A program made the position numbers and the translations under genes. A stretch of 64,000 nucleotides of DNA from Candidatus Latescibacterota bacterium (GTDB lineage Bacteria; Latescibacterota; UBA2968; GCA-2709665), in assembly GCA_965203805.1 (NCBI GenBank), contig OZ241917.1, forward strand, positions 2,016,001-2,080,000. The letters are read 5' to 3'. Below the pieces are notes generated by a model. That model was not told the DNA's origin, searched no databases, and worked only from the letters and a program-made list of their open reading frames with translations. Positions 1,804 through 44,101 of the stretch are shown in pieces (position 1 is the first letter of the stretch; each line of letters opens with the position of its first letter).

Positions 1804-1832
1804 TTGACAACTCGGGTGCGGGTGACTAACTT
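1804..1832 (+). promoter_or_regulatory. sigma70-type promoter of the valS leader
   Basis: TTGACA (1804-1809), 17 bp spacer, TAACTT (1827-1832). Confidence 0.65.
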
Positions 1833-1877
1833 TCTATGAATTCAAACCCTGAGATCTCTATCATTCAGACGAAACCC

Positions 1878-2003
1878 ATGATCACCATCGGCCACAGACC
1901 CCAGAATCTCACGTTGCGGGTCAACGTAAATGTCGGCGTACGCCCGGTAGTAAATGTCAATTCGGGCGATAGTCAGGGGACTCCGTGGCGGTGTTTGAAT
2001 TAG
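1878..2003 (+). CDS. putative Val-rich attenuator leader peptide of valS (41 aa; 55 aa if ATG 1836 is used)
   Basis: MITIGHRPQNLTLRVNVNVGVRPVVNVNSGDSQGTPWRCLN*; 7 Val codons in 13 (1920-1958); followed by a terminator; start codon ambiguous and no clear SD. Confidence 0.75.
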   Translation: MITIGHRPQNLTLRVNVNVGVRPVVNVNSGDSQGTPWRCLN

Positions 2004-2025
2004 CAGCTTGGACAAGAACACCAGC

Positions 2026-2063
2026 AACCCGCCATCGAGTCCACTCGGTGGCGGGTTTTTTTT
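2026..2063 (+). terminator. attenuator terminator upstream of valS
   Basis: AACCCGCCATCGAGT / ACTCGGTGGCGGGTT stem ending in a T8 run. Confidence 0.9.
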
Positions 2064-2085
2064 ATATGAATATCGAGGATTCCTG

Positions 2086-2367
2086 ATGTCGCATCGACCA
2101 CACACATCGCGTTGCCTTTCCAGGCTCCCGGGCTATTCTCCGTACAGCGAACGGTCGGCAGCCACTATTGTCGAAAAACGTTCAGGCGCGATGCTGCGGG
2201 GGATTACGGTCGGCGACCAGTGGGTCGCCGGATTTCAGGTTCCCGGACGGGAAGGAAGCGCTCGATTGTGTGACGGAATTACTACCGAAGTTAGCCTCCG
2301 GGAGGACAGACAGGCCGATATCCTGGCCGCCGCAGATGTACAGCAGGATTGGCCGCGGCAGTTATGA
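2086..2367 (+). other. unassigned 93-aa ORF or decayed gene between the attenuator and valS
   Basis: GAGGA SD 6 nt before ATG 2086; no recognisable family. Confidence 0.25.
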
Positions 2368-2487
2368 TTTGCCGGATGTGGGCCGTTACTTCGAGGTCCT
2401 CGAACTCACCGTCTTCGACGATTGGAGATTCCAGGGTACGGAATTTCCGGATTCGCATAATGGACAATACCTCCCGGGAGAATCAAA

Positions 2488-4932
2488 ATGGCATTATCCA
2501 AACAGTATCGTCCACAGGAAACAGAGCCTCGCCTTCAGGCGCGCTGGCGGCTCGCGAGTATCTACAAATTTGAGAGACAGGCCACGGGCCCTGTGTACGC
2601 AATCGACACCCCGCCTGCGACCGTGTCCGGAAAACTCCACATGGGCCACGTCTATTCCTACAGTCATGCTGATTTCATGGCGCGCTTCTGGAGAATGAAC
2701 GGCCAACGGGTGTTTTATCCTATGGGATATGACGACAACGGTTTACCCACCGAACGGTTGGTGGAAAAACTGTTGGGAATCCGCGCAAACGAAATTGGCC
2801 GCGAGGAATTCATAAATCAATGCTTGCGCGTCAGCTTGGCCACAGAAAGAGAATACGAGAGTCTCTGGATTCGGCTGGGGCTGTCGGTCGACTGGTCGCA
2901 TACCTACCGCACTATCGGTCGCGCCGCCCGGCGAATTGCGCAGAAATCATTCATCGACCTTTTCGAAAAAGGGCTCGCGTATCGTAAGAAAGCGCCTGCG
3001 GTCTGGTGCCCGGAATGCCAGACCGCCATCGCCCAAGCCGAACTGGACGAAGCGGATCGGATGGGCGAATTGGTCACAATAGACTTCCGCCTCGCGGACG
3101 GAAATCCAATACCGATCGCCACAACCCGGCCGGAGCTTCTAGCGGCGTGCGTAGCAATCTTCGTCCATCCCAGTGACGACCGCTACAGTTCGTTTATCGG
3201 CCACGACGTTACCGTACCACTTTATGGACGCGAGGTTTCGATATTGCAGGACAAGGGGGCGGATCCCGAAATGGGTACAGGGGCTGTGATGTGCTGCACC
3301 TTCGGCGACGCCGCTGACGTGGCATGGTGGCATTCTCATCACCTGCCGCTTGTCTCCGTTATCGACGGAAACGGCCGGTTGAACCGTGGATCCGGCGATC
3401 TCAACGGCCTTTCCGTACCAGAAGCCAGGCGACATATCGTAAGGACGCTTGATGATCGCGGTCTGATCCGGGATCGACGGCCCTTTCCACAATCAGTTCG
3501 GATCCACGAACGCTGTGACACGCCAGTGGAATTCATCGTCGCCCCTCAGTGGTTCATTAACATCCTCGACTTCAAGGACCGCTGGCTTAGCGCAGGCGAA
3601 GAAATATCGTGGCATCCCCCGCATTTGAAAACCCGCTACATTGAATGGATCGAAAACCTGCATTGGGACTGGTGCATCTCGCGACAGCGCAACTTTGGCG
3701 TACCGTTTCCGATCTGGTACTGCAAAGCTTGCGGAGACGTCAAAGTTGCCCCCGAACAGAAACTGCCCATAGACCCCCTCCAATCGTCCCCAGATGTGAA
3801 TTGCAATTGCGGCGCCGACGATTGGGTCGCGGAAACAGACGTTATGGATACCTGGGCTACGTCGTCGCTCAGTCCTCAAATCGCCGCTCGGTGGCAATCG
3901 AATAATGAGCTTTATGGTAACGTCTACCCAATGTCCATGCGCCCGCAGTCACATGAGATCATCCGGACGTGGGCCTTCTACACGATTGTCAGATCCCACT
4001 ATCATTGCGGTCGAGTACCTTGGAATGACGTATGCGTATCCGGTTGGGGCCTGGCTCCTGACGGTGCGGGGAAAATCAGCAAGAGCAGAGGCGGTGGACC
4101 GACGGCACCCATGGCCGCAATCAGGAAGTACTCGGCAGACGCAGTTCGATATTGGGCGGCCGGAACGGGTTTTGGAAAAGACACAGTCATTAGCGAAGAA
4201 AGAATCCAGGCCGGCGGCAAACTGATCAACAAGCTCTGGAACGTCGCCCGCTTCAGCGAACGCTTCCTTCAGGGATATCGCGATTCAATTGAACCATCAA
4301 CCCTGACCCCAGCGGACCGCTGGATTCTGGCGCGGGCACAACGCGTAATCAAACAGACAACTTGCTCTTTCCGAAACTACCAGTACGCGCAGGCAAGGCA
4401 TGCAGTCGAAATCTTCTTTTGGCGAGACGTGGCTGACAACTACCTGGAAATGGCCAAACAACGCCTTTATGCAGACGCCGAGGGCGCAGCAAGCGGCGCG
4501 AAATATGCACTATGTCACGTGCTTCGAACCTGCGTTCACCTCTTTGCGCCGTTTCTGCCCCACGTAACCGACGAGATCTACGCCGGGCTATTCGCAAAGC
4601 GTGGAGAATCCATCCACACCTCAACCTGGCCCTCGGTGGATGTGCGACTGGTGGACGATGTCGCGGAGGCGCACGGAAACCGACTGGTTGAGATTGCCAC
4701 TGCCGTTCGCAGATTCAAGAGCGAATCCAACCTCCCGCTCAGTGCGCCCGTGCATCTGTTACAGCTTTCAGTCAAGGATCATGCGCTCTCAATGTCGCTG
4801 AAGGAGGCTGAAGCCGATATGACCAGTATTACACGCGCTGACAAGCTTGACGTCCGGCTGAATCACCCTGTCGACGCCGGCCTTCGAGGCGTGCTCGAGA
4901 GCGATGCTGTATACGCGGCGGTTGACGTCTAA
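2488..4932 (+). CDS. valS: valine--tRNA ligase, archaeal-like (type 2) form
   Basis: IDTPPATVSGKLHMGH (HIGH), ATTRPE, GTGAVMCCTFGD, DWCISRQR, KISKS; lacks the bacterial C-terminal coiled coil. Confidence 0.95.
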   Translation: MALSKQYRPQETEPRLQARWRLASIYKFERQATGPVYAIDTPPATVSGKLHMGHVYSYSHADFMARFWRMNGQRVFYPMGYDDNGLPTERLVEKLLGIRANEIGREEFINQCLRVSLATEREYESLWIRLGLSVDWSHTYRTIGRAARRIAQKSFIDLFEKGLAYRKKAPAVWCPECQTAIAQAELDEADRMGELVTIDFRLADGNPIPIATTRPELLAACVAIFVHPSDDRYSSFIGHDVTVPLYGREVSILQDKGADPEMGTGAVMCCTFGDAADVAWWHSHHLPLVSVIDGNGRLNRGSGDLNGLSVPEARRHIVRTLDDRGLIRDRRPFPQSVRIHERCDTPVEFIVAPQWFINILDFKDRWLSAGEEISWHPPHLKTRYIEWIENLHWDWCISRQRNFGVPFPIWYCKACGDVKVAPEQKLPIDPLQSSPDVNCNCGADDWVAETDVMDTWATSSLSPQIAARWQSNNELYGNVYPMSMRPQSHEIIRTWAFYTIVRSHYHCGRVPWNDVCVSGWGLAPDGAGKISKSRGGGPTAPMAAIRKYSADAVRYWAAGTGFGKDTVISEERIQAGGKLINKLWNVARFSERFLQGYRDSIEPSTLTPADRWILARAQRVIKQTTCSFRNYQYAQARHAVEIFFWRDVADNYLEMAKQRLYADAEGAASGAKYALCHVLRTCVHLFAPFLPHVTDEIYAGLFAKRGESIHTSTWPSVDVRLVDDVAEAHGNRLVEIATAVRRFKSESNLPLSAPVHLLQLSVKDHALSMSLKEAEADMTSITRADKLDVRLNHPVDAGLRGVLESDAVYAAVDV

Positions 4933-5038
4933 CGGGATCCTCAGTCGTCATCTATGGTGTGTGCCGATTTGATCTAAAAACCGTTTAAGTATCAGACCCT
5001 TTGGTGATTTTTACAGAGTGAGCCTGGAGACCTGACCA

Positions 5039-5179
5039 ATGACGACGCGTTGTTCCATCTACCACATCAATACCTCACTGAAGTCACCCGGAACAGCCGT
5101 GTGCCTGGACGTCAATCCCTACAACGATAATAACAACCATAACCCTATCCAACGGCGGGCAGGCCCAAATGGCAGCTAA
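5039..5179 (+). CDS. putative Asn/Asp-rich attenuator leader peptide of aspS (46 aa)
   Basis: SD GGAGA 5026-5030; MTTRCSIYHINTSLKSPGTAVCLDVNPYNDNNNHNPIQRRAGPNGS*; 6 Asn + 2 Asp in 12 codons (5108-5143). Confidence 0.8.
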   Translation: MTTRCSIYHINTSLKSPGTAVCLDVNPYNDNNNHNPIQRRAGPNGS

Positions 5180-5196
5180 ATGTTCACCATGAAGAG

Positions 5197-5232
5197 AACC
5201 CGCCGTGGGTCGCACACCAACGGCGGGTTTTT
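5197..5232 (+). terminator. attenuator terminator upstream of aspS
   Basis: AACCCGCCGT / ACGGCGGGTT stem ending in a T5 run, about 40 nt before the aspS start. Confidence 0.85.
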
Positions 5233-5274
5233 CATGATCGAAAACTCAGACCGTCAAAACAGGAGATTTATCCA

Positions 5275-6594
5275 ATGACCTACGTTTCAATACCCCGGCT
5301 CAGTGATCATGTGGGGCAGATCGTCACACTCTGTGGATGGATACACACCCTTCGAGACCAGAAACAAATGCAATTCATCGTTCTCCGCAATCCCACCGGA
5401 ATGGTCCAGGCCGCCGTTGAGAAACAATCGAATCCCGGCCTGGCAAGAATGGTTTCCACCCTCACACGGGAGTCCGCTGTTCGCCTCACCGGCCGTGTCG
5501 TGCCAAACCCGAACGTCCGCCTTGGCGGCATCGAAATCCACCTGGAGGGGCTCCGCATCGAAAACAGGGCGGAATCGCCTCTGCCGATCGAACCATTTGG
5601 CGAAGTGAGACCTGGATTGGAACGGAGGCTTGACTGGCGGCATCTGGACCTGCGACGCCCAGCGAACCATCTGCTTTTCCAGGTACAGACCACCATCGAA
5701 GCCGCAATGCGAAACTTCTGGCGACGCGAGGGATTCATCGAAATTCATACCCCGAAGATTATGGGCAGCGCAAGTGAATCCGGTGCCGAACTCTTTGAAC
5801 TCCCGTATTTCGACGCCACGGCCTACCTCGCTCAGTCGCCCCAGTTCTACAAGCAGATGGCCATGGCAGCAGGCTTCGAACGAGTCTTTGAAATTGGCCC
5901 CGTTTTCAGGGCGAACCCCTCGTTCACTTCGCGTCACGACACCGAGTTCACCAGCGTAGACGTTGAACTCGCATGGATCGAATCGCACGATGACCTCATG
6001 CACTTTGAAGAACTTTGGCTCTGCCATACTCTGCTCGCCGTGCAGGAATCACACGGCGAAGCAATTTTCAAGCGTTTTGGCACTGAAGTTTGCGTTCCTG
6101 ACCGTCCCTTTCCACGCATCACCATGGAAGACGCTGTCGCACGGCTCGCGGAACTGGGGTACACACCCCCACCACAAAAACAGGGCGACCTTTGCCCACA
6201 GGGAGAGCGCCTGCTTGGCGAATACATCCGGGAAACTTACGGCCACGAGTTCGTTTTCCTGACCGATTATCCTGTTTCCGTCCGCCCTTTTTATCACATG
6301 CGGTACCCTGATAACCCGATCGTCACCAAGAGCTTCGACCTTTTATGGAAAGGCCTGGAACTGACCACAGGCGCGCAACGCGAACACCGACCAGCCGTAC
6401 TGACCGACCAGGCGAAAGAAAAGCGGCTCAAGTTAGAACCCCTACGGTTCTACCTGGACTTTTTCAAATACGGGTGTCCACCACACGGCGGCTTCGGTTT
6501 CGGCCTGACCCGAATGCTCATGATTCTACTTGGATGCAAGAACGTACGGGAAGTCACGTTTGTCTATCGCGGCCCAAAGAGAATCTACCCGTAG
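5275..6594 (+). CDS. aspS: aspartate--tRNA(Asp/Asn) ligase, short archaeal-type, probably non-discriminating
   Basis: OB-fold GWIH..RD, YLAQSPQFYKQM, FRA..S.TSRH.TEF, TTGAQR, YGCPPHGGFGFG; 439 aa, no GAD insertion; SD AGGAG. Confidence 0.9.
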   Translation: MTYVSIPRLSDHVGQIVTLCGWIHTLRDQKQMQFIVLRNPTGMVQAAVEKQSNPGLARMVSTLTRESAVRLTGRVVPNPNVRLGGIEIHLEGLRIENRAESPLPIEPFGEVRPGLERRLDWRHLDLRRPANHLLFQVQTTIEAAMRNFWRREGFIEIHTPKIMGSASESGAELFELPYFDATAYLAQSPQFYKQMAMAAGFERVFEIGPVFRANPSFTSRHDTEFTSVDVELAWIESHDDLMHFEELWLCHTLLAVQESHGEAIFKRFGTEVCVPDRPFPRITMEDAVARLAELGYTPPPQKQGDLCPQGERLLGEYIRETYGHEFVFLTDYPVSVRPFYHMRYPDNPIVTKSFDLLWKGLELTTGAQREHRPAVLTDQAKEKRLKLEPLRFYLDFFKYGCPPHGGFGFGLTRMLMILLGCKNVREVTFVYRGPKRIYP

Positions 6595-6630: not shown

Positions 6631-6659
6631 GCGCCGGAGCGATGTTCCCGCTCCGGCGC
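6631..6659. other. strong hairpin between convergent genes
   Basis: GCGCCGGAGCG-N7-CGCTCCGGCGC; no clear U-tract. Confidence 0.45.
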
Positions 6660-6841
6660 CTGTCTTCGCGGTCCATGGGCAGTATCTCCCGGTCCTTTCT
6701 TTCGAATCCGGATCAGGAAAGCACCTTTCCAACGTACCGCAGATTGTCGTTTGTTCGCGCTTCAGTTATTGTCTGACGCACGTTTTTCACGTAGGCCCGG
6801 TTGTCGACGATCCGAACCCGTGAGTCGCCCGGCTGCGTGGG

Positions 6842-7816: not shown

Positions 7817-8199
7817 CAAAAGCCTCCTTATTTAAATGTCTCACGAGACAACCGCGGGCATGTCCCGCGGCCATGTATCCTCAGGCTGAAAACCGGTATC
7901 CGTGTATGACCCAACGGAAGCCGGAAACCGCTACGGCGGATGCAGCCATGTTCTAAGACTCGCGAGACGGCGGATTGTTTCTGTCCGGGTCCTGTTTCGG
8001 CGAAAACCGCGGCAAAAGACAGATTCGCCAGGCAATATGCGAGCGTTCAACCCGTGACGGCTATGCGTGGAAATCATGAACAAAACACTTGACATATCGA
8101 GAGAATCCTATTATCTAATCGTTTCGGCACCTTTCCGTCGATAAGTTCCAATTAATGGCAACGGAGTGGTCGGACCACAATAAAAAAGGAGATCGGTCG

Positions 8200-8544
8200 A
8201 TGGAGGTTAACACCGAGCGGGACAATGGCACCTTGATCGCGAAGGCTGAGGGTCGCGTCGATGGGTCCAACGCCCGAGAGTTCGAGGAAGCGCTCGATTC
8301 CGCGATCACCCAGCACGAAGATGGTCAGGCCGTGATCGTGGATTTTGAAGGGCTTTCATATATTAGCAGCGCAGGCCTCAGGGTCATCCTGCTGACCGCC
8401 AGAACGCTTCGAAAACAGGACAAGGAGTTCGTAGTCTGCTCTCTCTCTGACCCAATCAGGGAAGTCTTTGAAATCAGCGGATTCGACAAGATAATACCGG
8501 TTTACGCCTCCCGGTCGGAAGCGCTGGCAGCAGTTGGAGGATAG
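8200..8544 (+). CDS. STAS-domain anti-sigma factor antagonist (RsbV/SpoIIAA-like)
   Basis: GRVD, LSYISSAGLRVIL with phospho-acceptor Ser, EVFEISGF; SD AAGGAG before ATG 8200. Confidence 0.9.
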   Translation: MEVNTERDNGTLIAKAEGRVDGSNAREFEEALDSAITQHEDGQAVIVDFEGLSYISSAGLRVILLTARTLRKQDKEFVVCSLSDPIREVFEISGFDKIIPVYASRSEALAAVGG

Positions 8545-8744
8545 CAACGGGTTGGTCCGGGACTTCTTCACCGAAGCACATGGCGTTCGTTGAGGAAGTA
8601 CCGCGGGTGGAAGTGGCATATAAGCCGTATCGGGTTCACGGGGCGATCAGCGGGTCATGGGCAGAATGGCCGGCGCGACCGGCGGGTTGTCCCCCGGCTG
8701 TCGGCGGTTCCACCTGAATCTCCCGCGAATCGGAAAGGCCGACC

Positions 8745-10418
8745 ATGATCGAAGACCTGCTGCCGATCGGTTTGCTCATCGTCGTCGCCAAGCTCCTTGA
8801 GTGCCTCCTCGACCGTGTCGGACTGAGTTCAATTGTCGCCTACACGGCGGCGGGATTAATCCTCGGCCCCATCGCGGGTATTGTTGAGCCATCCAGCAAG
8901 CTGCAGATCTTCCTTGGCATCGGCGTCTTCATCCTTTTTTTCCTCGTCGGCCTCGACGAAATAGACATCCCCGGCTTTGTGGCAACCATCCGGGGGCGTT
9001 TTTTTTGTGCAGCTATTGTTTCAGTTGTGATCTCGATGGTTGCTGCCATGGTGGTCACGTCGGACCTCTTCAACGTGGATTTCGCCCTCGAACTCGATTT
9101 CAGGGACGCGCTTGCGCTCGCCGGAATCCTCTCGATGTCGAGTCTGGGGCTTGTGGCGAAGGTGCTGGCAGACAGGGGATTTCTGAAAGAACCCCTTGGT
9201 CTCGAGATATTCACCACGGTCATCATCGCCGAGATGGTCACACTCCTGGTCGTGGGATTCAGCATCGGAGAACATACCATCGGCGCACACGACCACCTCT
9301 GGGGAGGCGCCGCCAGCGTGGTATTCCTGCTCGCGCAGGTCGCGGCTTTCGCGGTTGTGGCGTGGATTCTGTCCGCCAGAGTGATGCCGCCGACAATTCT
9401 CTTTCTGAAACGACTCTTCAACGTCCCCGAGTTGTCGTTCGGATTGCTGATTGGCGGCCTGTTTCTGATGGTTGTCGTTGCCGAAGAGATGGGGCTTCAC
9501 GGGGCCCTCGGCGCCTTGCTTTTCGGCGCGGCACTGTCGGGGCTGCCGCGTCAGGTGCACAATGACGTTATGCCCGGCATTCGGAGCGCGGCGGAAGGCC
9601 TGTTTGTTCCTCTCTTTTTTGCGTCGGCCGGTTTGCGGCTCGATTTATCGTTCCTCTCGCTGCCGGTGGCAACCATCATCGCGGTGCTGACGGTTCCCGC
9701 GGCGGGAAAGTTCGCCGGCGCATTCATTGGTGCCTATGTGGCTCGACTCGACAAACCGTACGCGCAAGCGGCCGGACTGATGGCGAAAGGTGTGGCCGAG
9801 ATCGCGCTTCTGCTGGTCCTGCTGGAAAACGGCGTGATCGGACAGGACGTGTTCTCGCTGGTTGTGCTCGCGATGTTCGGCTACATCGTGCTGATGCCGC
9901 AGGCAATATCATCCGCGGTCAACAAAGCGCGCCTGACCCACCGCCCGACGCCGCCGGACGTTGTACCGACCTCCTTCGCGCGTCGCGCCCTCGACGACAT
10001 CACGGCCGGTCACGTTCTGGATCCGTCAAGGTCGTATCCCGATGTATCGCTGTCAATCAGAAAATTCGCAGATGACTGGATCGTGCCGGATCAACAGGAC
10101 TACGTCGTCGTCGACAACGGCGCCGTTGCGGGGACCGTTTCGCCGGCACGGCTGACGTCTGTCCCGATGGGATCCTGGGCGGACACACCGCTCCAGCGTG
10201 TGCTCCGACCGGACCCGCCCCATGTCGAACCCGACGAGCCCATTGCAGACGTCCTTCAAAAGCTGTCGCGCCACTCCATGTCGGTGATACCGGTCCGGGA
10301 CAAGGAGTCACACGATTTCCTGGGCACCATTACCAGTCACGACGTTATCGACCTCGTCCTTCTGATGGATGAAATCGCCGACGAGTTGAAGGAGATGGAA
10401 AGCCACACGGCGAATTGA
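8745..10418 (+). CDS. cation:proton antiporter (CPA2-like) with C-terminal CBS pair
   Basis: Multiple TM segments, GLILGP, FVPLFFASAGL; C-terminal CBS-like VIPVRD...GTITSHDV. Confidence 0.85.
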   Translation: MIEDLLPIGLLIVVAKLLECLLDRVGLSSIVAYTAAGLILGPIAGIVEPSSKLQIFLGIGVFILFFLVGLDEIDIPGFVATIRGRFFCAAIVSVVISMVAAMVVTSDLFNVDFALELDFRDALALAGILSMSSLGLVAKVLADRGFLKEPLGLEIFTTVIIAEMVTLLVVGFSIGEHTIGAHDHLWGGAASVVFLLAQVAAFAVVAWILSARVMPPTILFLKRLFNVPELSFGLLIGGLFLMVVVAEEMGLHGALGALLFGAALSGLPRQVHNDVMPGIRSAAEGLFVPLFFASAGLRLDLSFLSLPVATIIAVLTVPAAGKFAGAFIGAYVARLDKPYAQAAGLMAKGVAEIALLLVLLENGVIGQDVFSLVVLAMFGYIVLMPQAISSAVNKARLTHRPTPPDVVPTSFARRALDDITAGHVLDPSRSYPDVSLSIRKFADDWIVPDQQDYVVVDNGAVAGTVSPARLTSVPMGSWADTPLQRVLRPDPPHVEPDEPIADVLQKLSRHSMSVIPVRDKESHDFLGTITSHDVIDLVLLMDEIADELKEMESHTAN

Positions 10419-21896: not shown

Positions 21897-21904
21897 TTAA
21901 AGTA

Positions 21905-21983
21905 GATCCGCGCGGGGTGCCGAACGGCTGAGATCATACCCTTGGAACCTGATCTGGATTATGCCAGCGTAGGGAAGCGGAAC
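21905..21983 (+). ncRNA. TPP riboswitch
   Basis: GGGGTGC..GCTGAGA..ATACCCT.GAACCTGATCTGGATTATGCCAGCGTAGGGAA; upstream of thiC. Confidence 0.95.
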
Positions 21984-22004
21984 AAAGGTCTTTTAACAAA
22001 TAAA

Positions 22005-22043
22005 AAAGGCCGTTCCTTCCAGGGGGACGGTCCTTTGTTTTTT
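22005..22043 (+). terminator. riboswitch expression-platform terminator
   Basis: AAAGG CCGTTCCT / GGGGACGG CCTTT stem followed by a T-rich tract. Confidence 0.7.
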
Positions 22044-36277: not shown

Positions 36278-36676
36278 ATGGCGAAGAAAAGACGATTGGC
36301 CGAAGCGGAATGGGAGGTGATGGACGGCGTCTGGCAATTCGGTCGCCGGGTTACCGTTCGCGAGGTTGTGGATCACCTCTATCCCAACGGCGAGAAGGCC
36401 TATACGACGGTTCAGACGATCATGAATATTCTGACTGCAAAGGGCGTACTTGACCGGGAAAAGATCGGTCCCGTCAATGTGTACAGATCCGCGCTTTCGC
36501 GGCAGGATGTCGCACAGGCCGAAACGCGCACCCTGGTATCGCGCATGTTCGAGGGTTCCTTCGGCGCCCTGGCGACCTATCTCGTGGATTCGGGCGAACT
36601 CTCGAAGAAGGAGCTCGATGAATTGCGGGCACTGATCGAGGAAAGAGAAAAGGCGAAGGAAGGAGGCCCGACGTGA
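36278..36676 (+). CDS. BlaI/MecI/CopY family repressor
   Basis: LAEAEWEVM..VW, AYTTVQTIM..L..KG, FEGS. Confidence 0.92.
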   Translation: MAKKRRLAEAEWEVMDGVWQFGRRVTVREVVDHLYPNGEKAYTTVQTIMNILTAKGVLDREKIGPVNVYRSALSRQDVAQAETRTLVSRMFEGSFGALATYLVDSGELSKKELDELRALIEEREKAKEGGPT

Positions 36677-39600
36677 ACACGTTAATACATCTGGCGGAAA
36701 CGTGGTGGCCGCTCTATGCCGTGCACATGGTCGAAATCTCGTTCTTCATTGTTCTTGTGTGGTCCGTGGACCGGTGGTTCGCGCTGGATTCACGGTTGAG
36801 ATACGCGCTCTATCTGCTGGCCCTTGCGAAGGTGTTTGTACCGCCGGTACTGGCCATCCCGATACCCGCGTTTCTGGTTTCTCCAGCAGGTGTCGCAGTG
36901 AACGCAACCGCTTATTTCGGAGCGGTATCTGAAGCCGTCGCTGTCGCTCCCGAACCTGCGGCCACGCTTCCGCCGGCGTTCTATTTGTTCTGTCTGTGGA
37001 TTCTCTCGGTCCTTGTCTGGACGGGCGCGGCGCTGTGGAAAAACGCGGCCTTTCGCCGTGCGCTGAAGCCGGCAAGCCCGGTGGACCTGGCAAGCGAGAT
37101 CGCGTCACTGAACGCACCGGAGACCTTGAAAGTGTATTCCAAGCCAACCCTGCCCTCTCCCATTCTGGTGGGCCTGCGGAGGCCGCGGTTGTTCCTGCCC
37201 TCGAAGTGGTCTTCGTGGTCGTCTGAAGAACTGCGAGGCGTCTTGAAGCACGAACTGGCGCACCATGAACGGCGTGACATCTACGTGCTGATTCTGCAGG
37301 CCCTGGCAACGGCGCTGTTTGGCGCAAATCCGTTAATCTGGCTGTTGAACCGAAGGTTGTCATACCTGCGCGAATTGCGCTGTGACGAAGCGGTGCTGCG
37401 CGAGACGAATCTGACACCTGCCGATTACGGGCGCCTGCTGCTGGGCTTTGTCGACACGCGGTCCTCCCCGGGACCGCTGACCGTATTCTTCACCGAGCGA
37501 GGCGCGACGCTGAAGAAACGCCTGGAGCACATCCTCAACTACAAGGCGGGCAATATGAATCGGTCAAAGTGGCAGTTTGTAACGCTAATACTCGTCGGCC
37601 TGATGATAGTGCCGCTCTCGATCCGTGAAGCATATACACAGAATGACGTCTCAAAGTCGGCCACAAACGTCGAGATGGCCGTCCCCGAGAAAGTACAGCG
37701 GACTGCGCCACCCGTTACGGGCAATTCGGACACTGTTACGGTTGGAGTCCCAACCGACGACGAGGCTGAAGTGGAAAAGAAGCCCGTTACGATTTCGCAG
37801 CTCAAGAGTTCAGTTGCTGTTAATGATGCCTTTATGCAATTCGTGAATTCTCGTACCGCACCTGATACAGGGTTCACCGCCACGGTAACCTTGAACGTAA
37901 GGGCCGACGTACACGGCTCAGTGGAAGACGTGAAGCTTGTGAACGTCGAAGGGCCGGCAGGATTCGAAAACGCGGTAAGAGACGCCGTTTCGCGAATGAA
38001 ATTTGAGCCAGCGAAGCACGATAGTGTAAATGCGCCGGTATGGTTTACCCAGCAAATGTCGTATCACTGGCATGGCACATCAAAGCGCTCAAATCCGGCA
38101 AATCTCCTCGCTGCCCCGGACACTGGCCTGGTCGACGTCATTGAAATTGACCAGGTCGAAACGAAACCCCATCCGATACACATTGTCGGCCCGGAATTTC
38201 CCGAAGAGGCATTCAAGATCAAAACAGAGGGAATGGTTACGCTGAGACTTATCGTGAATGTCGACAGTTCGGTTAGCGACGTGACGGTTTTGAGCGGGCC
38301 CGAAATATTCCATAGAGCCGCAGTAGATGCGGTGTTGCAGTGGCGGTTCAGACCGGCGAAGATTGGTGGTCGAGCAGTGCCCGTATCGTTGGTTATGCCG
38401 ATTGGATTTTCCCACAACGCTGAGAATGAGCATGAAATCTTGCCCGCAAAGAGAACCGGCCAAGCTCCCACTGAAAATCCCGATCGAGTTACCGCACCAA
38501 AACCTGGTCAGGGAGATAATGGCGATCAAAAAACTCTCGAATTCTGGTCGGTAGACGAGAAACCAGTCGTCTCGCATGCCGTTGAGCCCATTTATCCCGA
38601 TGCGGCAAGAAAAGCACGTCTGACGGGAAACGTGTTCTTGAAATTCAAGGTGAACGTGGATGGATCAGTAAGCGATGTAAACGTAATCAAAGGCAACGTG
38701 GTCTTTAAAAAATCGGCGATCGACGCCGCGTCGCAATATCGGTTCATTCCCGCGAAACACGACGGTAAGCCCGTCGCGGTGTGGATGACGCACCGAATCA
38801 AGTTTAATCTGCCCAAGCAAGAGGCCGGGCGACCCGAAGACCAAACCGACGTTCAAGCTGAGACGACTTTCGAGATTTGGGACGTGGACATTAAGCCAGT
38901 CGTTACGCATTCCGCTCAACCAATCTATCCAGAATTGGCACGTTTAACCGGGGGAAGGACGGGGTCTGTACACGTCAAGTTCATAGTCAACGAAAATGGA
39001 TCGGTAAGCGACGTACGTCCGCTAAAAGGTCAATCGATATTTATTAAACCTGCGATTGATGCGATATCACAATACAGGTTTAAGCCTGCCGAGTACGAAA
39101 ACGAGCCCGTCGCAGTGTGGATGACCCACCGGATCAACTTTCAACCACCCGAACCAAAGGCCACAATTGACGGCGAAAACGTCTTTGACTTACGAACCGT
39201 AGACAAAACACCGGTTGTCGTGCATGCCGTACAGCCGATTTATCCCGACGTGTCGAAAGAAGCAGGCCTGGTGGGACAGGTTGCTTTGAAATTCAAGGTC
39301 GGCGTGGATGGCACCGTGAGCAACGTCGACGCATTCGTCCTCAAAGGCGGTGAGGATTTTCGCAAGCCCGCGATTGAAGCAATAACACGATTTCTCTACA
39401 AGCCTGCCGAACACGAGGGAAAGCCTGTTGCGGTGTGGATGACACACCATTTTACGTTCACGCCCCCAGAACCTGGAGACGGCACAGATCACCGTACGGG
39501 CGATATCGGTAGGGATAAAGTCTTCGAGATTTCAGAGGTGGACATAGCGCCCGTCCCTCCGAGCCTGCTTGAAGTTCGCCCAAATTATCCGGAGGTGGCG

Positions 39601-39861
39601 CAAAAAGCGGGCTTAACTGGAAGAGTTGTGTTGAAGTTCAAGGTCGATGAGGATGGGTCAGTGAGCGATGTACACGTCCTGAAAGGCGACGAGATATTTC
39701 GCGAGCCTGCAATTGAATCAGTTACCCGACTTCGTTACAAACCAGCTATACGCGCCGGTAAAGCCGTGCCCGTGTGGTTAACAATGTCCGTAACGTTCGC
39801 GCTCCCTGACCATCAGGACGACACAGTTCCCGACACGAGCAATCCTGGCACCGGGAATTAA
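36673..39861 (+). CDS. M56 (BlaR1-type) metallopeptidase fused to six TonB C-terminal domains
   Basis: HELAH, NPLIW, RELRCDE; repeated P.YP..A....G.V..KF.V..DG.V...F.PA...G.PV.VW units. Confidence 0.9.
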   Translation: MNTLIHLAETWWPLYAVHMVEISFFIVLVWSVDRWFALDSRLRYALYLLALAKVFVPPVLAIPIPAFLVSPAGVAVNATAYFGAVSEAVAVAPEPAATLPPAFYLFCLWILSVLVWTGAALWKNAAFRRALKPASPVDLASEIASLNAPETLKVYSKPTLPSPILVGLRRPRLFLPSKWSSWSSEELRGVLKHELAHHERRDIYVLILQALATALFGANPLIWLLNRRLSYLRELRCDEAVLRETNLTPADYGRLLLGFVDTRSSPGPLTVFFTERGATLKKRLEHILNYKAGNMNRSKWQFVTLILVGLMIVPLSIREAYTQNDVSKSATNVEMAVPEKVQRTAPPVTGNSDTVTVGVPTDDEAEVEKKPVTISQLKSSVAVNDAFMQFVNSRTAPDTGFTATVTLNVRADVHGSVEDVKLVNVEGPAGFENAVRDAVSRMKFEPAKHDSVNAPVWFTQQMSYHWHGTSKRSNPANLLAAPDTGLVDVIEIDQVETKPHPIHIVGPEFPEEAFKIKTEGMVTLRLIVNVDSSVSDVTVLSGPEIFHRAAVDAVLQWRFRPAKIGGRAVPVSLVMPIGFSHNAENEHEILPAKRTGQAPTENPDRVTAPKPGQGDNGDQKTLEFWSVDEKPVVSHAVEPIYPDAARKARLTGNVFLKFKVNVDGSVSDVNVIKGNVVFKKSAIDAASQYRFIPAKHDGKPVAVWMTHRIKFNLPKQEAGRPEDQTDVQAETTFEIWDVDIKPVVTHSAQPIYPELARLTGGRTGSVHVKFIVNENGSVSDVRPLKGQSIFIKPAIDAISQYRFKPAEYENEPVAVWMTHRINFQPPEPKATIDGENVFDLRTVDKTPVVVHAVQPIYPDVSKEAGLVGQVALKFKVGVDGTVSNVDAFVLKGGEDFRKPAIEAITRFLYKPAEHEGKPVAVWMTHHFTFTPPEPGDGTDHRTGDIGRDKVFEISEVDIAPVPPSLLEVRPNYPEVAQKAGLTGRVVLKFKVDEDGSVSDVHVLKGDEIFREPAIESVTRLRYKPAIRAGKAVPVWLTMSVTFALPDHQDDTVPDTSNPGTGN

Positions 39862-42386: not shown

Positions 42387-43349
42387 GTGAGCGACAAGGG
42401 CCTACAAGCGAGTTCATTCGAAAATCGCCAGCTTGCGCTTTTCGGTCGTTCCGTACAACCGTGGCTAGGCGTCGTGAACGCAACGGAAGAACCCCACGTT
42501 CGAGTTGACACGCTGAACAGAGCGCCATTCGAGGCTATTACTCGCCCAATGGTGATTTGCGGCGATGCCACCCAAGCTCTGAAGCTTCTTCCTGAAAAGT
42601 CCATTCAAACGGTCGTCACGTCACCGCCCTATTGGTCACTGCGCGATTACGGTGTTGAGGAACAGATTGGGCGCGACGAAAGCCTACGAGGCTATGTCAA
42701 GAGCATCGTTTGCACCTTCGAGCAGATAAGGCGCGCCTTGCGCGACGATGGCACTGTTTGGCTGAACGTTGGTGATTCCTATACATCCGGCAACCGAAGA
42801 TATCGGGCGCCAGACCGGAAAAACCGTGCACGCGCCATGGCAGTGCGACCGCCGACGCCAGAAGGACTTAAGCCAAAGGACTTGATAGGTGTACCCTGGA
42901 GATTGGCGTTCGCTCTACAAGAAGCGGGTTGGTGGATTCGGAGTGAAATCATTTGGCACAAACCGAATGCCCATCCTGAGTCCGTTCGAGACCGGCCAAC
43001 CAAAGCTCACGAGACTGTTTTCCTCTTGTCAAAAGACAAGCAATATTACTACGACCACGAAATCGTCAAGGGGCCGCGTGACCGTCGACTGCGAACGGTT
43101 TGGGAGATTCCCACTGAACCGGTGAAGCGCGTAAACGGGAAAGCAGATGACCATCCCGCGATGATGCCTCTCTCGCTCGCTCGCTGCTGTGTAGCCATTA
43201 CCAGCCGCGATGACAGTATCGTACTCGACCCCTACGCGGGTTCGGGAACAACGCTTCTAGCGGCACGTGAACTCGGACGAAGGTGGGTTGGGATTGAAAT
43301 CAAACCCGCTTTCGTGGATCTGATTGAACGGCGGTTGTGCGTGTCATGA
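42387..43349 (+). CDS. DNA methyltransferase, beta class, likely N4-cytosine
   Basis: TSPPYW precedes DPYAGSGTT; HPA motif. Confidence 0.92.
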   Translation: MSDKGLQASSFENRQLALFGRSVQPWLGVVNATEEPHVRVDTLNRAPFEAITRPMVICGDATQALKLLPEKSIQTVVTSPPYWSLRDYGVEEQIGRDESLRGYVKSIVCTFEQIRRALRDDGTVWLNVGDSYTSGNRRYRAPDRKNRARAMAVRPPTPEGLKPKDLIGVPWRLAFALQEAGWWIRSEIIWHKPNAHPESVRDRPTKAHETVFLLSKDKQYYYDHEIVKGPRDRRLRTVWEIPTEPVKRVNGKADDHPAMMPLSLARCCVAITSRDDSIVLDPYAGSGTTLLAARELGRRWVGIEIKPAFVDLIERRLCVS

Positions 43350-44101
43350 CGCTTGATGAACTCAAGGCGACTCTCGATGCATTCTCACCGGTCAAGATCG
43401 AATTCGTTGCAAGGGTTATGGAATCTTTGGCGAATCCTCCGCTTGCCAACATTCGATCTAAAGGAACATGGCTGACGGGCGAACCGGACTGGATTGAATA
43501 CTTCGGGCTTGCTTTATCGGTTCACCATGGCGCAACGACTGAGCCGTTGGGACTATCGTCGTTTGAGACAGTGTTCAGAAACGCCTGTGAACACCTCCGC
43601 TGGTCAATTGATCCTCCGGGCTCCCGAACTCAGCGATTCGTCGATATGGTCGTACGTCCTGAGTCAGGCAACCGTCGGCGATTGTCTCTAAAATCCACTG
43701 CCGCCAAGAGCTTATCCAATACAGCATTGCATATTTCCAAACTGACGGAGGCCGCGTGGATTCAGGACGCACGCACCGCCAGAGATCGACGAGACCGTAC
43801 ACTTGAATTGTTCAGGCAGTATCAAAGGGCCGTTACTCAGATCGTCATGCTCCGAGCGTTTCGGGAAGACACTGGAAAGATCCCGCACAGATATCAGCTT
43901 GTTGAGGTCCCGATCAGCATCTTCGACTCCATTCAGCAGGTGCCTCTAAAGGTCTTCGAACGGGATGCGCCAGTGATCGAATGTACCGTTGGAGATCGCG
44001 TAGCGGCAGTGGTGGCGATCGACCGATCCGATGCGAAGATAACGGTCAGGCGAGTTCAGCTTTCAGCCTGCACTGTTCATGCGGAATGGGATAAGGCGTA
44101 G
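43346..44101 (+). CDS. putative type II restriction endonuclease, SmaI-like
   Basis: ATGA overlap with the MTase; FG..L..HH, D...SLKS.AAK, HISK..E, YQLVEVP, C.VH..WD resemble SmaI as recalled. Confidence 0.7.
   Translation: MTLDELKATLDAFSPVKIEFVARVMESLANPPLANIRSKGTWLTGEPDWIEYFGLALSVHHGATTEPLGLSSFETVFRNACEHLRWSIDPPGSRTQRFVDMVVRPESGNRRRLSLKSTAAKSLSNTALHISKLTEAAWIQDARTARDRRDRTLELFRQYQRAVTQIVMLRAFREDTGKIPHRYQLVEVPISIFDSIQQVPLKVFERDAPVIECTVGDRVAAVVAIDRSDAKITVRRVQLSACTVHAEWDKA

Follow-up and report, generated by a model that had tools for sequence, protein, structure and literature searches.

Two synthetase genes that stand side by side, each behind a leader of its own, raise the question of what those leaders sense and which transcripts they govern. 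Such a pair lies in a 64,000-nucleotide (nt) stretch of Candidatus Latescibacterota DNA (contig OZ241917.1, positions 2,016,001 to 2,080,000 of the forward strand), which was analysed over its full length and is called the window below. The gene calls confirmed that valS (2488-4932) and aspS (5275-6594) adjoin and are co-oriented on the (+) strand, as an initial annotation of this DNA had described. Leader 1 precedes valS and leader 2 precedes aspS, and both combine a conserved upstream open reading frame (uORF) enriched in valine, asparagine or aspartate codons with a terminator hairpin and a second pairing that excludes the hairpin. We propose that promoter, leader 1, spacer, valS, leader 2 and aspS probably form one operon under two classical ribosome-mediated attenuators in series.

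Two leaders with conserved frames and mutually exclusive hairpins

Related loci were gathered by a valS search of a genome collection, which returned 147 matched stretches, 126 of them confirmed, and the best 80 were kept. Almost all of these 80 loci come from Latescibacterota and Chloroflexota, and their valS products are 53-76% identical to that of the window. The nearest five are all Latescibacterota (L009, 76%; L001, 74%; L002, 70%; L015, 63%; L016, 61%), and the remaining 75 belong almost entirely to Chloroflexota lineages at 53-63% identity.

Leader 1 was recovered as DNA from four sequences (the window, L001, L009 and L002). Its frame, uORF 1 (1878-2003, + strand; 41 codons and a TAG stop at 2001), is identical in length and in start and stop positions in all four, with no insertions or deletions. 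A profile built from these four sequences retrieved three further peptides in a protein search (43, 43 and 55 residues), to give a family of seven members; the window peptide as sole query returned no matches in the same kind of search. The start codon had initially been placed at 1836, which we revise to the conserved start at 1878. Position 1836 was rejected as a conserved start: L001 and L002 have GTG there, in L001 it is also out of frame, and the window's own ATG at that position coincides with or precedes the likely transcript start. In the sequence P0006 the upstream start is in frame with uORF 1, unlike in L001.

The part of uORF 1 that would do the sensing spans codons 15-32 (1920-1973) and in the window holds seven valine, four asparagine and one aspartate codon. 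Across all seven family members, valine takes up 4-7 of these 18 codons and asparagine plus aspartate another 4-7; the three together account for 9-12 of 18 where about three are expected (P from 1e-3 to 4e-6). The alternation V-N-V-N ... V-N-V-N that had been read from the window is indeed present, at codons 15-18 and 25-28. Asparagine or aspartate occupies the conserved positions 18, 26, 28 and 31, and the valine codons at positions 17, 21 and 24 are GTA in all four DNA sequences, GTA being the rarest valine codon in the window's genes (12%).

Two pairings compete at the end of this frame. Terminator 1 (2026-2065, +) consists of a 14-base-pair (bp) stem (2026-2057) with a 4-nt loop, followed by a run of eight T (folding free energy, dG, -25.8; z-score -7.8), and its stem is kept in 54 of 56 alignment cells, a cell being one base pair in one of the four sequences. 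The competing antiterminator uses as its 5' strand a near-copy of the terminator 3' arm located in uORF 1 codons 34-39 (1978-1995, +), which pairs with 2026-2042 over 16 bp (dG -23.1; 54 of 64 cells, with no covariation). When leader 1 was folded under constraints, a ribosome footprint at the stop codon left 6 bp of the antiterminator, and footprints at the valine codons left it whole.

Leader 2 was available as DNA from the window, L002 and L016. A GGAG Shine-Dalgarno sequence (5026-5029, +) and the ATG of uORF 2 are invariant in this alignment of three, and uORF 2 itself (5039-5179, +; 46 codons and TAA) has 46 codons in each, with no insertions or deletions at a DNA identity of 57-72%. Five matches at E-values up to 0.001 were obtained when a leader 2 profile was run against a library of 1.84 billion proteins. 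Protein searches thus contributed P0001, P0002, P0004 and P0005, which bring this family to seven members as well; one profile match, P0003, was dropped, being a protein of 1187 residues that matches profile positions 12-29 only.

Asparagine accounts for 4-8 of the 12 codons before a Pro-Ile pair in all seven leader 2 peptides (binomial P from 4e-4 to 4e-10 for each peptide), and in the window the asparagine run covers codons 26-35 (5114-5143). The same 12-codon segment contains one or two aspartate codons in every member, although in P0001 the aspartate falls outside the asparagine run; in this peptide, the closest relative, Tyr28 and Asp30 are both replaced by asparagine. The second leader had been described as cognate to aspartate, and this has to be corrected: it is rich in asparagine codons, not aspartate codons.

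The RNA of leader 2 repeats the arrangement seen upstream of valS. Terminator 2 (5197-5232, +) is a hairpin at 5197-5229 followed by five T (dG -24.9, z-score -5.0), with 29 of 30 cells paired and two compensatory pairs. A copy of its 3' arm at 5149-5159 (+) forms the antiterminator 5' strand and pairs with 5199-5209 through a 10-bp core (dG -22.8); all 30 cells pair, again with two compensatory pairs, where control helices slid along the alignment paired in 17-63% of cells. At one position of the terminator 2 5' arm (alignment column 169), L016 has changed together with both the terminator partner and the antiterminator partner.

In both leaders, then, an upstream near-copy of the terminator 3' arm pairs with the terminator 5' arm, and the terminator and antiterminator are of similar stability. 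The common architecture of uORF, antiterminator and terminator that had been noticed in the window holds for both leaders and is conserved in relatives. The shared start and end of the two terminators also holds: the pattern CCCGCC..GGCGGGTTTT occurs twice in the 64 kb and in none of 100 shuffled versions. Our own scan for hairpins followed by T runs ranked terminators 1 and 2 as the two strongest such elements in the window, the next cleanest being the terminator of a thiamine pyrophosphate (TPP) riboswitch. A wider claim, that these belong to a reusable attenuator family in which only the sensing codons are swapped, is poorly supported; only two such elements exist in 64 kb, the leaders cannot be aligned outside the GC-rich stem, and leader 2 of L016 has a different stem sequence. 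A pattern search and the hairpin scan found no third attenuator of like design in the window.

The two synthetases and the layout of the proposed operon

The valS product (814 residues) is a short form of valine-tRNA ligase. It scores 1017 bits against model NF009687 (cutoff 738) and 554 bits against the standard bacterial model NF004349, which is under the cutoff of 704. The aspS product (439 residues) was identified as an archaeal-type aspartate-tRNA(Asn) ligase by NF003483 (474.6 bits, cutoff 353) and TIGR00458 (384 bits, cutoff 368.4). Its only Pfam domains are tRNA-synt_2 and an OB fold, with no GAD domain. The nearest solved structures are aspartyl-tRNA synthetases (AspRS) from archaea (357 and 352 bits), followed by AspRS2 of T. 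thermophilus (282 bits; 1n9w), and its likeness to bacterial-type enzymes reaches 140 bits and is confined to the N-terminus. Both synthetases had been called archaeal-type, which the models, the structures and the missing GAD domain bear out for aspS. For valS the term is not established because all relatives found are bacterial; that enzyme is short and non-canonical.

A non-discriminating AspRS would be expected to have His and Pro where the Thermococcus enzyme has Trp26 and Lys85; a literature search for these specificity residues returned nothing. Aligned to 1b8a_A, the aspS product has His24 at the Trp26 position, which fits a non-discriminating enzyme, and Arg, not Pro, at the Lys85 position. 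Judged by its sequence, the product would belong to the archaeal, non-discriminating class and would make Asp-tRNA(Asn) as a substrate for GatCAB. AspRS2 of Thermus and Deinococcus resembles it in having no GAD domain and about 430 residues, in addition to the match to 1n9w. In Deinococcus-Thermus an extra archaeal-type non-discriminating AspRS stands beside the bacterial AspRS and works with GatCAB to form asparagine on tRNA(Asn), according to the available text of PMC4206432. Regulation by an asparagine-codon leader, which we propose for the aspS of the window, was not found in our literature searches for Thermus or Deinococcus AspRS2.

In L002, the aspS gene (7849-8960) is broken behind an intact leader 2: two IEIH-coding repeats have been fused by loss of the DNA between them, and the frame shifts near 8391. 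Either the gene has become a pseudogene or this metagenome-assembled genome contains an assembly error here.

A promoter-like site lies upstream of leader 1 at 1804-1832 (+), with TTGACA at 1804-1809, a 17-nt spacer and TAACTT at 1827-1832. Hexamers and spacing are kept in the alignment of the window, L001, L009 and L002, and the site is our candidate for the operon promoter. A consensus promoter scan missed it because the -10 box of the window matches at three of six positions. Transcription would start near 1839, about 7 nt past the conserved -10 box. Between valS and leader 2, neither the promoter and terminator scan nor our own hairpin scan found any promoter-like or terminator-like site, as had been reported for this gap, and our scan for hairpins with T runs found no other terminator-like site between 2063 and 5183. 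A GC-rich hairpin 3' of aspS (6631-6660, +), read directly from the sequence, may mark the end of the operon; it has no T run and was called by neither scan.

The order valS, leader 2, aspS is shared by the window, L002 and L016, that is, by two of the 80 loci plus the window. In L016, 13 nt separate the valS stop codon from the uORF 2 start codon. This order, the short gap in L016 and the lack of any such site between valS and leader 2 suggest that leader 2 is most simply an internal attenuator. No aspS was found within 5 kb downstream of valS in L001, L009 or L015.

Loci differ upstream of valS. The valS of L015 has a promoter-like site directly upstream (TTGACA-17-TATATT, 930-1010) and neither a leader frame nor a terminator, so the attenuator is confined to part of the phylum. 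The valS of L016 (5001) has no leader 1, and a 326-residue open reading frame (ORF; 3936-4916), transposase-like by eye, ends 85 nt upstream of it. In the window, the gene upstream of leader 1 (575-1789) encodes an LTXXQ-family protein (CpxP/Spy-like, by Pfam) and has long, near-identical internal DNA repeats; the stretch at about 1140-1260, for example, recurs at about 1410-1530. An LTXXQ gene precedes leader 1 in L002 and L009 too.

Serial attenuation weighed against other readings

Under two attenuators in series, both frames would be translated in step with transcription, and both terminators would respond to the level of charged tRNA. A ribosome that reached the end of a frame would cover the copy of the terminator 3' arm, whereupon the terminator hairpin would form and RNA polymerase would stop. 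A ribosome stalled earlier, on hungry codons, would leave that strand free to pair with the terminator 5' arm, and polymerase would read through. Leader 1 would read mainly valine codons, among them the three invariant rare GTA codons, interspersed with asparagine and aspartate codons, and would gate the whole operon. Leader 2 would read the asparagine run and one or two aspartate codons and would double as the terminator of valS, ending transcripts after that gene when Asn-tRNA is plentiful and letting them extend into aspS when it is scarce. Asn-tRNA(Asn) is formed from Asp-tRNA(Asn), which the aspS product would make, and an asparagine-codon leader would therefore place the indirect asparagine pathway under feedback control.

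Leader 1 has to be passed before a transcript reaches leader 2, and asparagine and aspartate codons in leader 1 would therefore be needed if aspS is to be induced while valine is plentiful. This need offers a rationale for dual sensing, and the codon enrichment fits it. The suggestion that leader 1 integrates valine and asparagine signals thus gains some support from the conserved asparagine and aspartate codons and the joint enrichment in all seven members. It is weakened by L001 and L009, which keep these codons though no aspS lies within 5 kb downstream.

Several further observations weigh against serial attenuation. No Shine-Dalgarno sequence is visible upstream of uORF 1, whose valine codons are scattered and form no run; three of the seven are unique to the window. 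Leader 1 shows essentially no covariation because its sequences are too alike. More generally, leader 1 was compared in four DNA sequences and leader 2 in three, and the shuffle controls are therefore not significant; for leader 2, with its three sequences, 47-54 of 500 shuffles reach the observed value. The upstream pairing between strands 1 and 2, which in a classical attenuator should lock the OFF state, is weak in both leaders and no better than in shuffles: leader 1 keeps it in 38 of 44 cells and leader 2 in 22 of 27, and each has a single compensatory pair. In the folding models, which disregard ribosome sterics and kinetics, partial transcripts without a ribosome fold into the antiterminator, and a stall simulated on Asn32 of L002 tips the fold towards another pairing. 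The conserved spacer of some 420 nt before valS has no role in this scheme. Finally, a ribosome at the uORF 2 stop codon leaves the antiterminator strand uncovered in all three sequences.

The C-terminal end of the leader 2 peptide bears on this last point. The stop codon lies too far downstream to cover the strand, so that plain classical geometry would need either steric exclusion or a stall at the RAGP motif encoded by codons 40-43 (5156-5167). The sequence PI[QR]RRAGP is invariant in all seven leader 2 peptides and is followed by only three or four residues before the stop. Within codons 36-43, the three DNA sequences show six synonymous-only changes and one amino-acid change, against four and 29 in the other 38 codons (Fisher P = 3e-4, for a block chosen post hoc). 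Two of the six synonymous changes are compensated in the antiterminator helix and four lie outside it. This bias points to translation of uORF 2 and to apparent selection acting on both peptide and RNA. The ribosome was modelled as protecting some 12 nt on the 5' side of its P site and 15 nt on the 3' side. With Gly42 in the P site, the footprint runs from about 5150 to 5179, covers the strand at 5149-5159 and abolishes the antiterminator helix in a constrained fold. The available text of PMC12992588 gives RAGP as the C-terminal core of the SecM arrest motif, counts it among RAPP-like stalling cores and describes such cores as under-represented in bacterial proteomes.

We therefore put forward, tentatively and on the strength of this modelling, a variant in which leader 2 is an arrest-assisted attenuator and forms a nested two-gate circuit with leader 1. 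Arrest at RAGP, not the stop codon, would park ribosomes that had passed the asparagine and aspartate codons on the antiterminator strand and so set the OFF state; the ON state would arise from a hungry-codon stall a few codons before RAGP. Leader 1 would open whenever any product of the two enzymes ran short, and leader 2 would decide on aspS alone. The likeness to SecM and other RAPP-like arrest peptides consists of an identical R-A-G-P core located a few codons from the stop. The arrest peptides known so far are encoded upstream of Sec or YidC genes and control translation of the next gene, whereas leader 2 lies upstream of aspS and its RAGP sits in an amino-acid-sensing attenuator peptide. 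Arrest in leader 2 is a prediction from sequence; known arrest peptides also need N-terminal context. If RAGP does stall ribosomes here, this leader would join nascent-peptide arrest and amino-acid attenuation, two fields studied apart, in a compact design of a 46-codon peptide and about 60 nt of RNA.

With or without arrest, we prefer two attenuators in series to three other accounts of the locus. The initial annotation had taken the pair for an inducible back-up cassette, with housekeeping valS and aspS or asnS genes elsewhere and the pair switched on when charging fails through starvation or synthetase inhibitors. Nothing found here supports this account, and we consider it unlikely. It would suit the non-canonical form, for bacteria, of both enzymes, the status of the archaeal-type non-discriminating AspRS of Deinococcus-Thermus as an additional copy beside the bacterial one (in the available text of PMC4206432), and the broken aspS of L002, which implies that the gene can be lost there; the absence of aspS from the valS site in L001 and L009 also leaves room for a dispensable or duplicated gene. 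What speaks against it is the context of the related valS genes. The same valS type runs through the best 80 related loci, and a T-box core motif lies upstream of valS in 63 of 77 of them, mainly in Chloroflexota (counted with our own regular expression, which is cruder than a model, at loci with at least 320 nt upstream; three of the 80 were too short). The T-box is a tRNA-sensing control used in routine synthetase feedback, and its motif on most of the related genes suggests an ordinary housekeeping valS under feedback. Cognate-codon attenuation is likewise the normal control of pheST, and the aspartate codons in all seven leader 2 sensing segments fit an enzyme that also serves tRNA(Asp).

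A second account, which we judge very unlikely, is that both leaders are RNA-only switches in which binding of a tRNA, a protein or a metabolite would flip the terminator and the frames would be incidental. The leader 1 peptide is conserved beyond its valine codons and lacks a Shine-Dalgarno sequence, and related valS genes do use an RNA-only tRNA sensor: the T-box of L008 scores 91.5 bits (E-value 1.3e-20). This is 1.5 bits under the Rfam gathering score, which explains why a search of 12 valS loci at the gathering threshold reported no T-box. The T-box core motif, however, occurs in none of the five Latescibacterota loci, and a T-box (RF00230) was rejected for the window leaders, which show neither the motif nor a model match at the gathering threshold or at E-values up to 10. 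Both leaders gave only chance hairpin matches in Rfam at E-values up to 10, and the whole window at the gathering threshold gave only the TPP riboswitch. An RNA-only switch would also leave unexplained why frame length, start and stop are conserved without insertions or deletions, why the enrichment is for exactly the cognate codons, and why uORF 2 codons 36-43 change almost only synonymously.

A third account takes the hairpins for plain gene-end terminators, one belonging to the LTXXQ gene and the other to valS, with frames and alternative pairings arising by chance, and is scarcely credible: the only terminator-like site that follows valS is terminator 2 and terminator 1 lies about 270 nt past the upstream gene (575-1789), but a conserved promoter-like site stands between that gene and leader 1, fixed-length frames with cognate-codon runs occur in seven of seven members of each family, and the leader 2 antiterminator pairs in every cell with compensatory changes.

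Relation to known systems, the spacer and neighbouring elements

Leader-peptide attenuation is an established mechanism, and what would be new here is its target genes, valS and aspS, in an uncultured phylum. The two leaders share with the classical attenuators of trp, his, ilv and pheST a frame of cognate codons, an intrinsic terminator and an exclusive antiterminator whose 5' strand lies at the frame end. They differ in their targets (valS and a non-discriminating aspS), in their phylum (Latescibacterota), in standing two in series in one operon, and in the mixing, in leader 1, of codons for the products of both enzymes. In the window, moreover, strand 1 does not contain the sensing codons, which fall between it and strand 2, and leader 2 has the invariant RAGP motif. 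The pheST operon of gamma-proteobacteria is a synthetase operon under leader-peptide attenuation, and to our knowledge nearly all documented cases of such control come from proteobacteria and a small number of actinobacteria and concern few amino acids. Among synthetase genes, the available text of PMC1262725 describes a classical attenuator upstream of pheST and predicts others in Streptomyces, upstream of leuS and trpS2. A search of open-access text returned no paper that dealt with an asparagine-codon leader or with leader peptides serving valS or aspS. A survey of Shewanella lists a '5' UTR motif' for aspS, given without mechanism in the available text of PMC2659441.

The T-box does the job that we propose for the window's leaders, matching the transcription of synthetase genes to tRNA charging by switching between terminator and antiterminator. 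It senses uncharged tRNA by RNA-RNA contact and has no reading frame, whereas the leaders of the window have frames. Leader-peptide attenuation here would take the place that the T-box holds on related valS genes, one tRNA-charging sensor standing in for another. The asparagine leader would in addition tie regulation to the indirect, tRNA-dependent route to Asn-tRNA, a route for which we found no attenuator in the literature.

The spacer between terminator 1 and valS (2066-2487, +; about 420 nt), of which the initial annotation made no mention, appears from the alignments to be a conserved, structured, non-coding element. An insertion of about 150 nt (about 2066-2230) is present in the window only, and the core of about 270 nt (about 2231-2487) is conserved in all four sequences with a multi-branch fold. 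In this fold an 8-bp helix, kept in 31 of 32 cells, pairs CCGGGAGG with CCTCCCGG, which adjoins the valS Shine-Dalgarno sequence. The spacer may add translational control as a second control element. Its substitutions show no codon periodicity, and it had no Rfam match, only chance hairpins at E-values up to 10. An ORF at 2086-2367 (or 2008-2367) was rejected as a gene, having no family match, stops that shift in relatives and no codon periodicity. A conserved 7-bp hairpin at 2331-2363 carries a GTAC loop that is invariant in all four sequences; that its UAC, an anticodon for GUA, might mimic the anticodon arm of tRNA(Val) is pure speculation.

The three cleanest hairpin-plus-T-run terminators in the 64 kb all lie in 5' leaders and none at a gene end, and gene-end termination in the window may rely on other signals. 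The third of them belongs to the TPP riboswitch upstream of thiC (21903-22043); in L016, a TPP riboswitch (9299-9389) and a thiC-sized ORF directly follow aspS. Elsewhere in the window, a BlaI-like repressor gene is followed by one for a 1062-residue BlaR1-type M56 peptidase with five TonB C-terminal repeats (36278-39861), and a gene for an N4/N6 DNA methylase adjoins a SmaI-like endonuclease ORF (42387-44101), the two being likely to form a type II restriction-modification pair.

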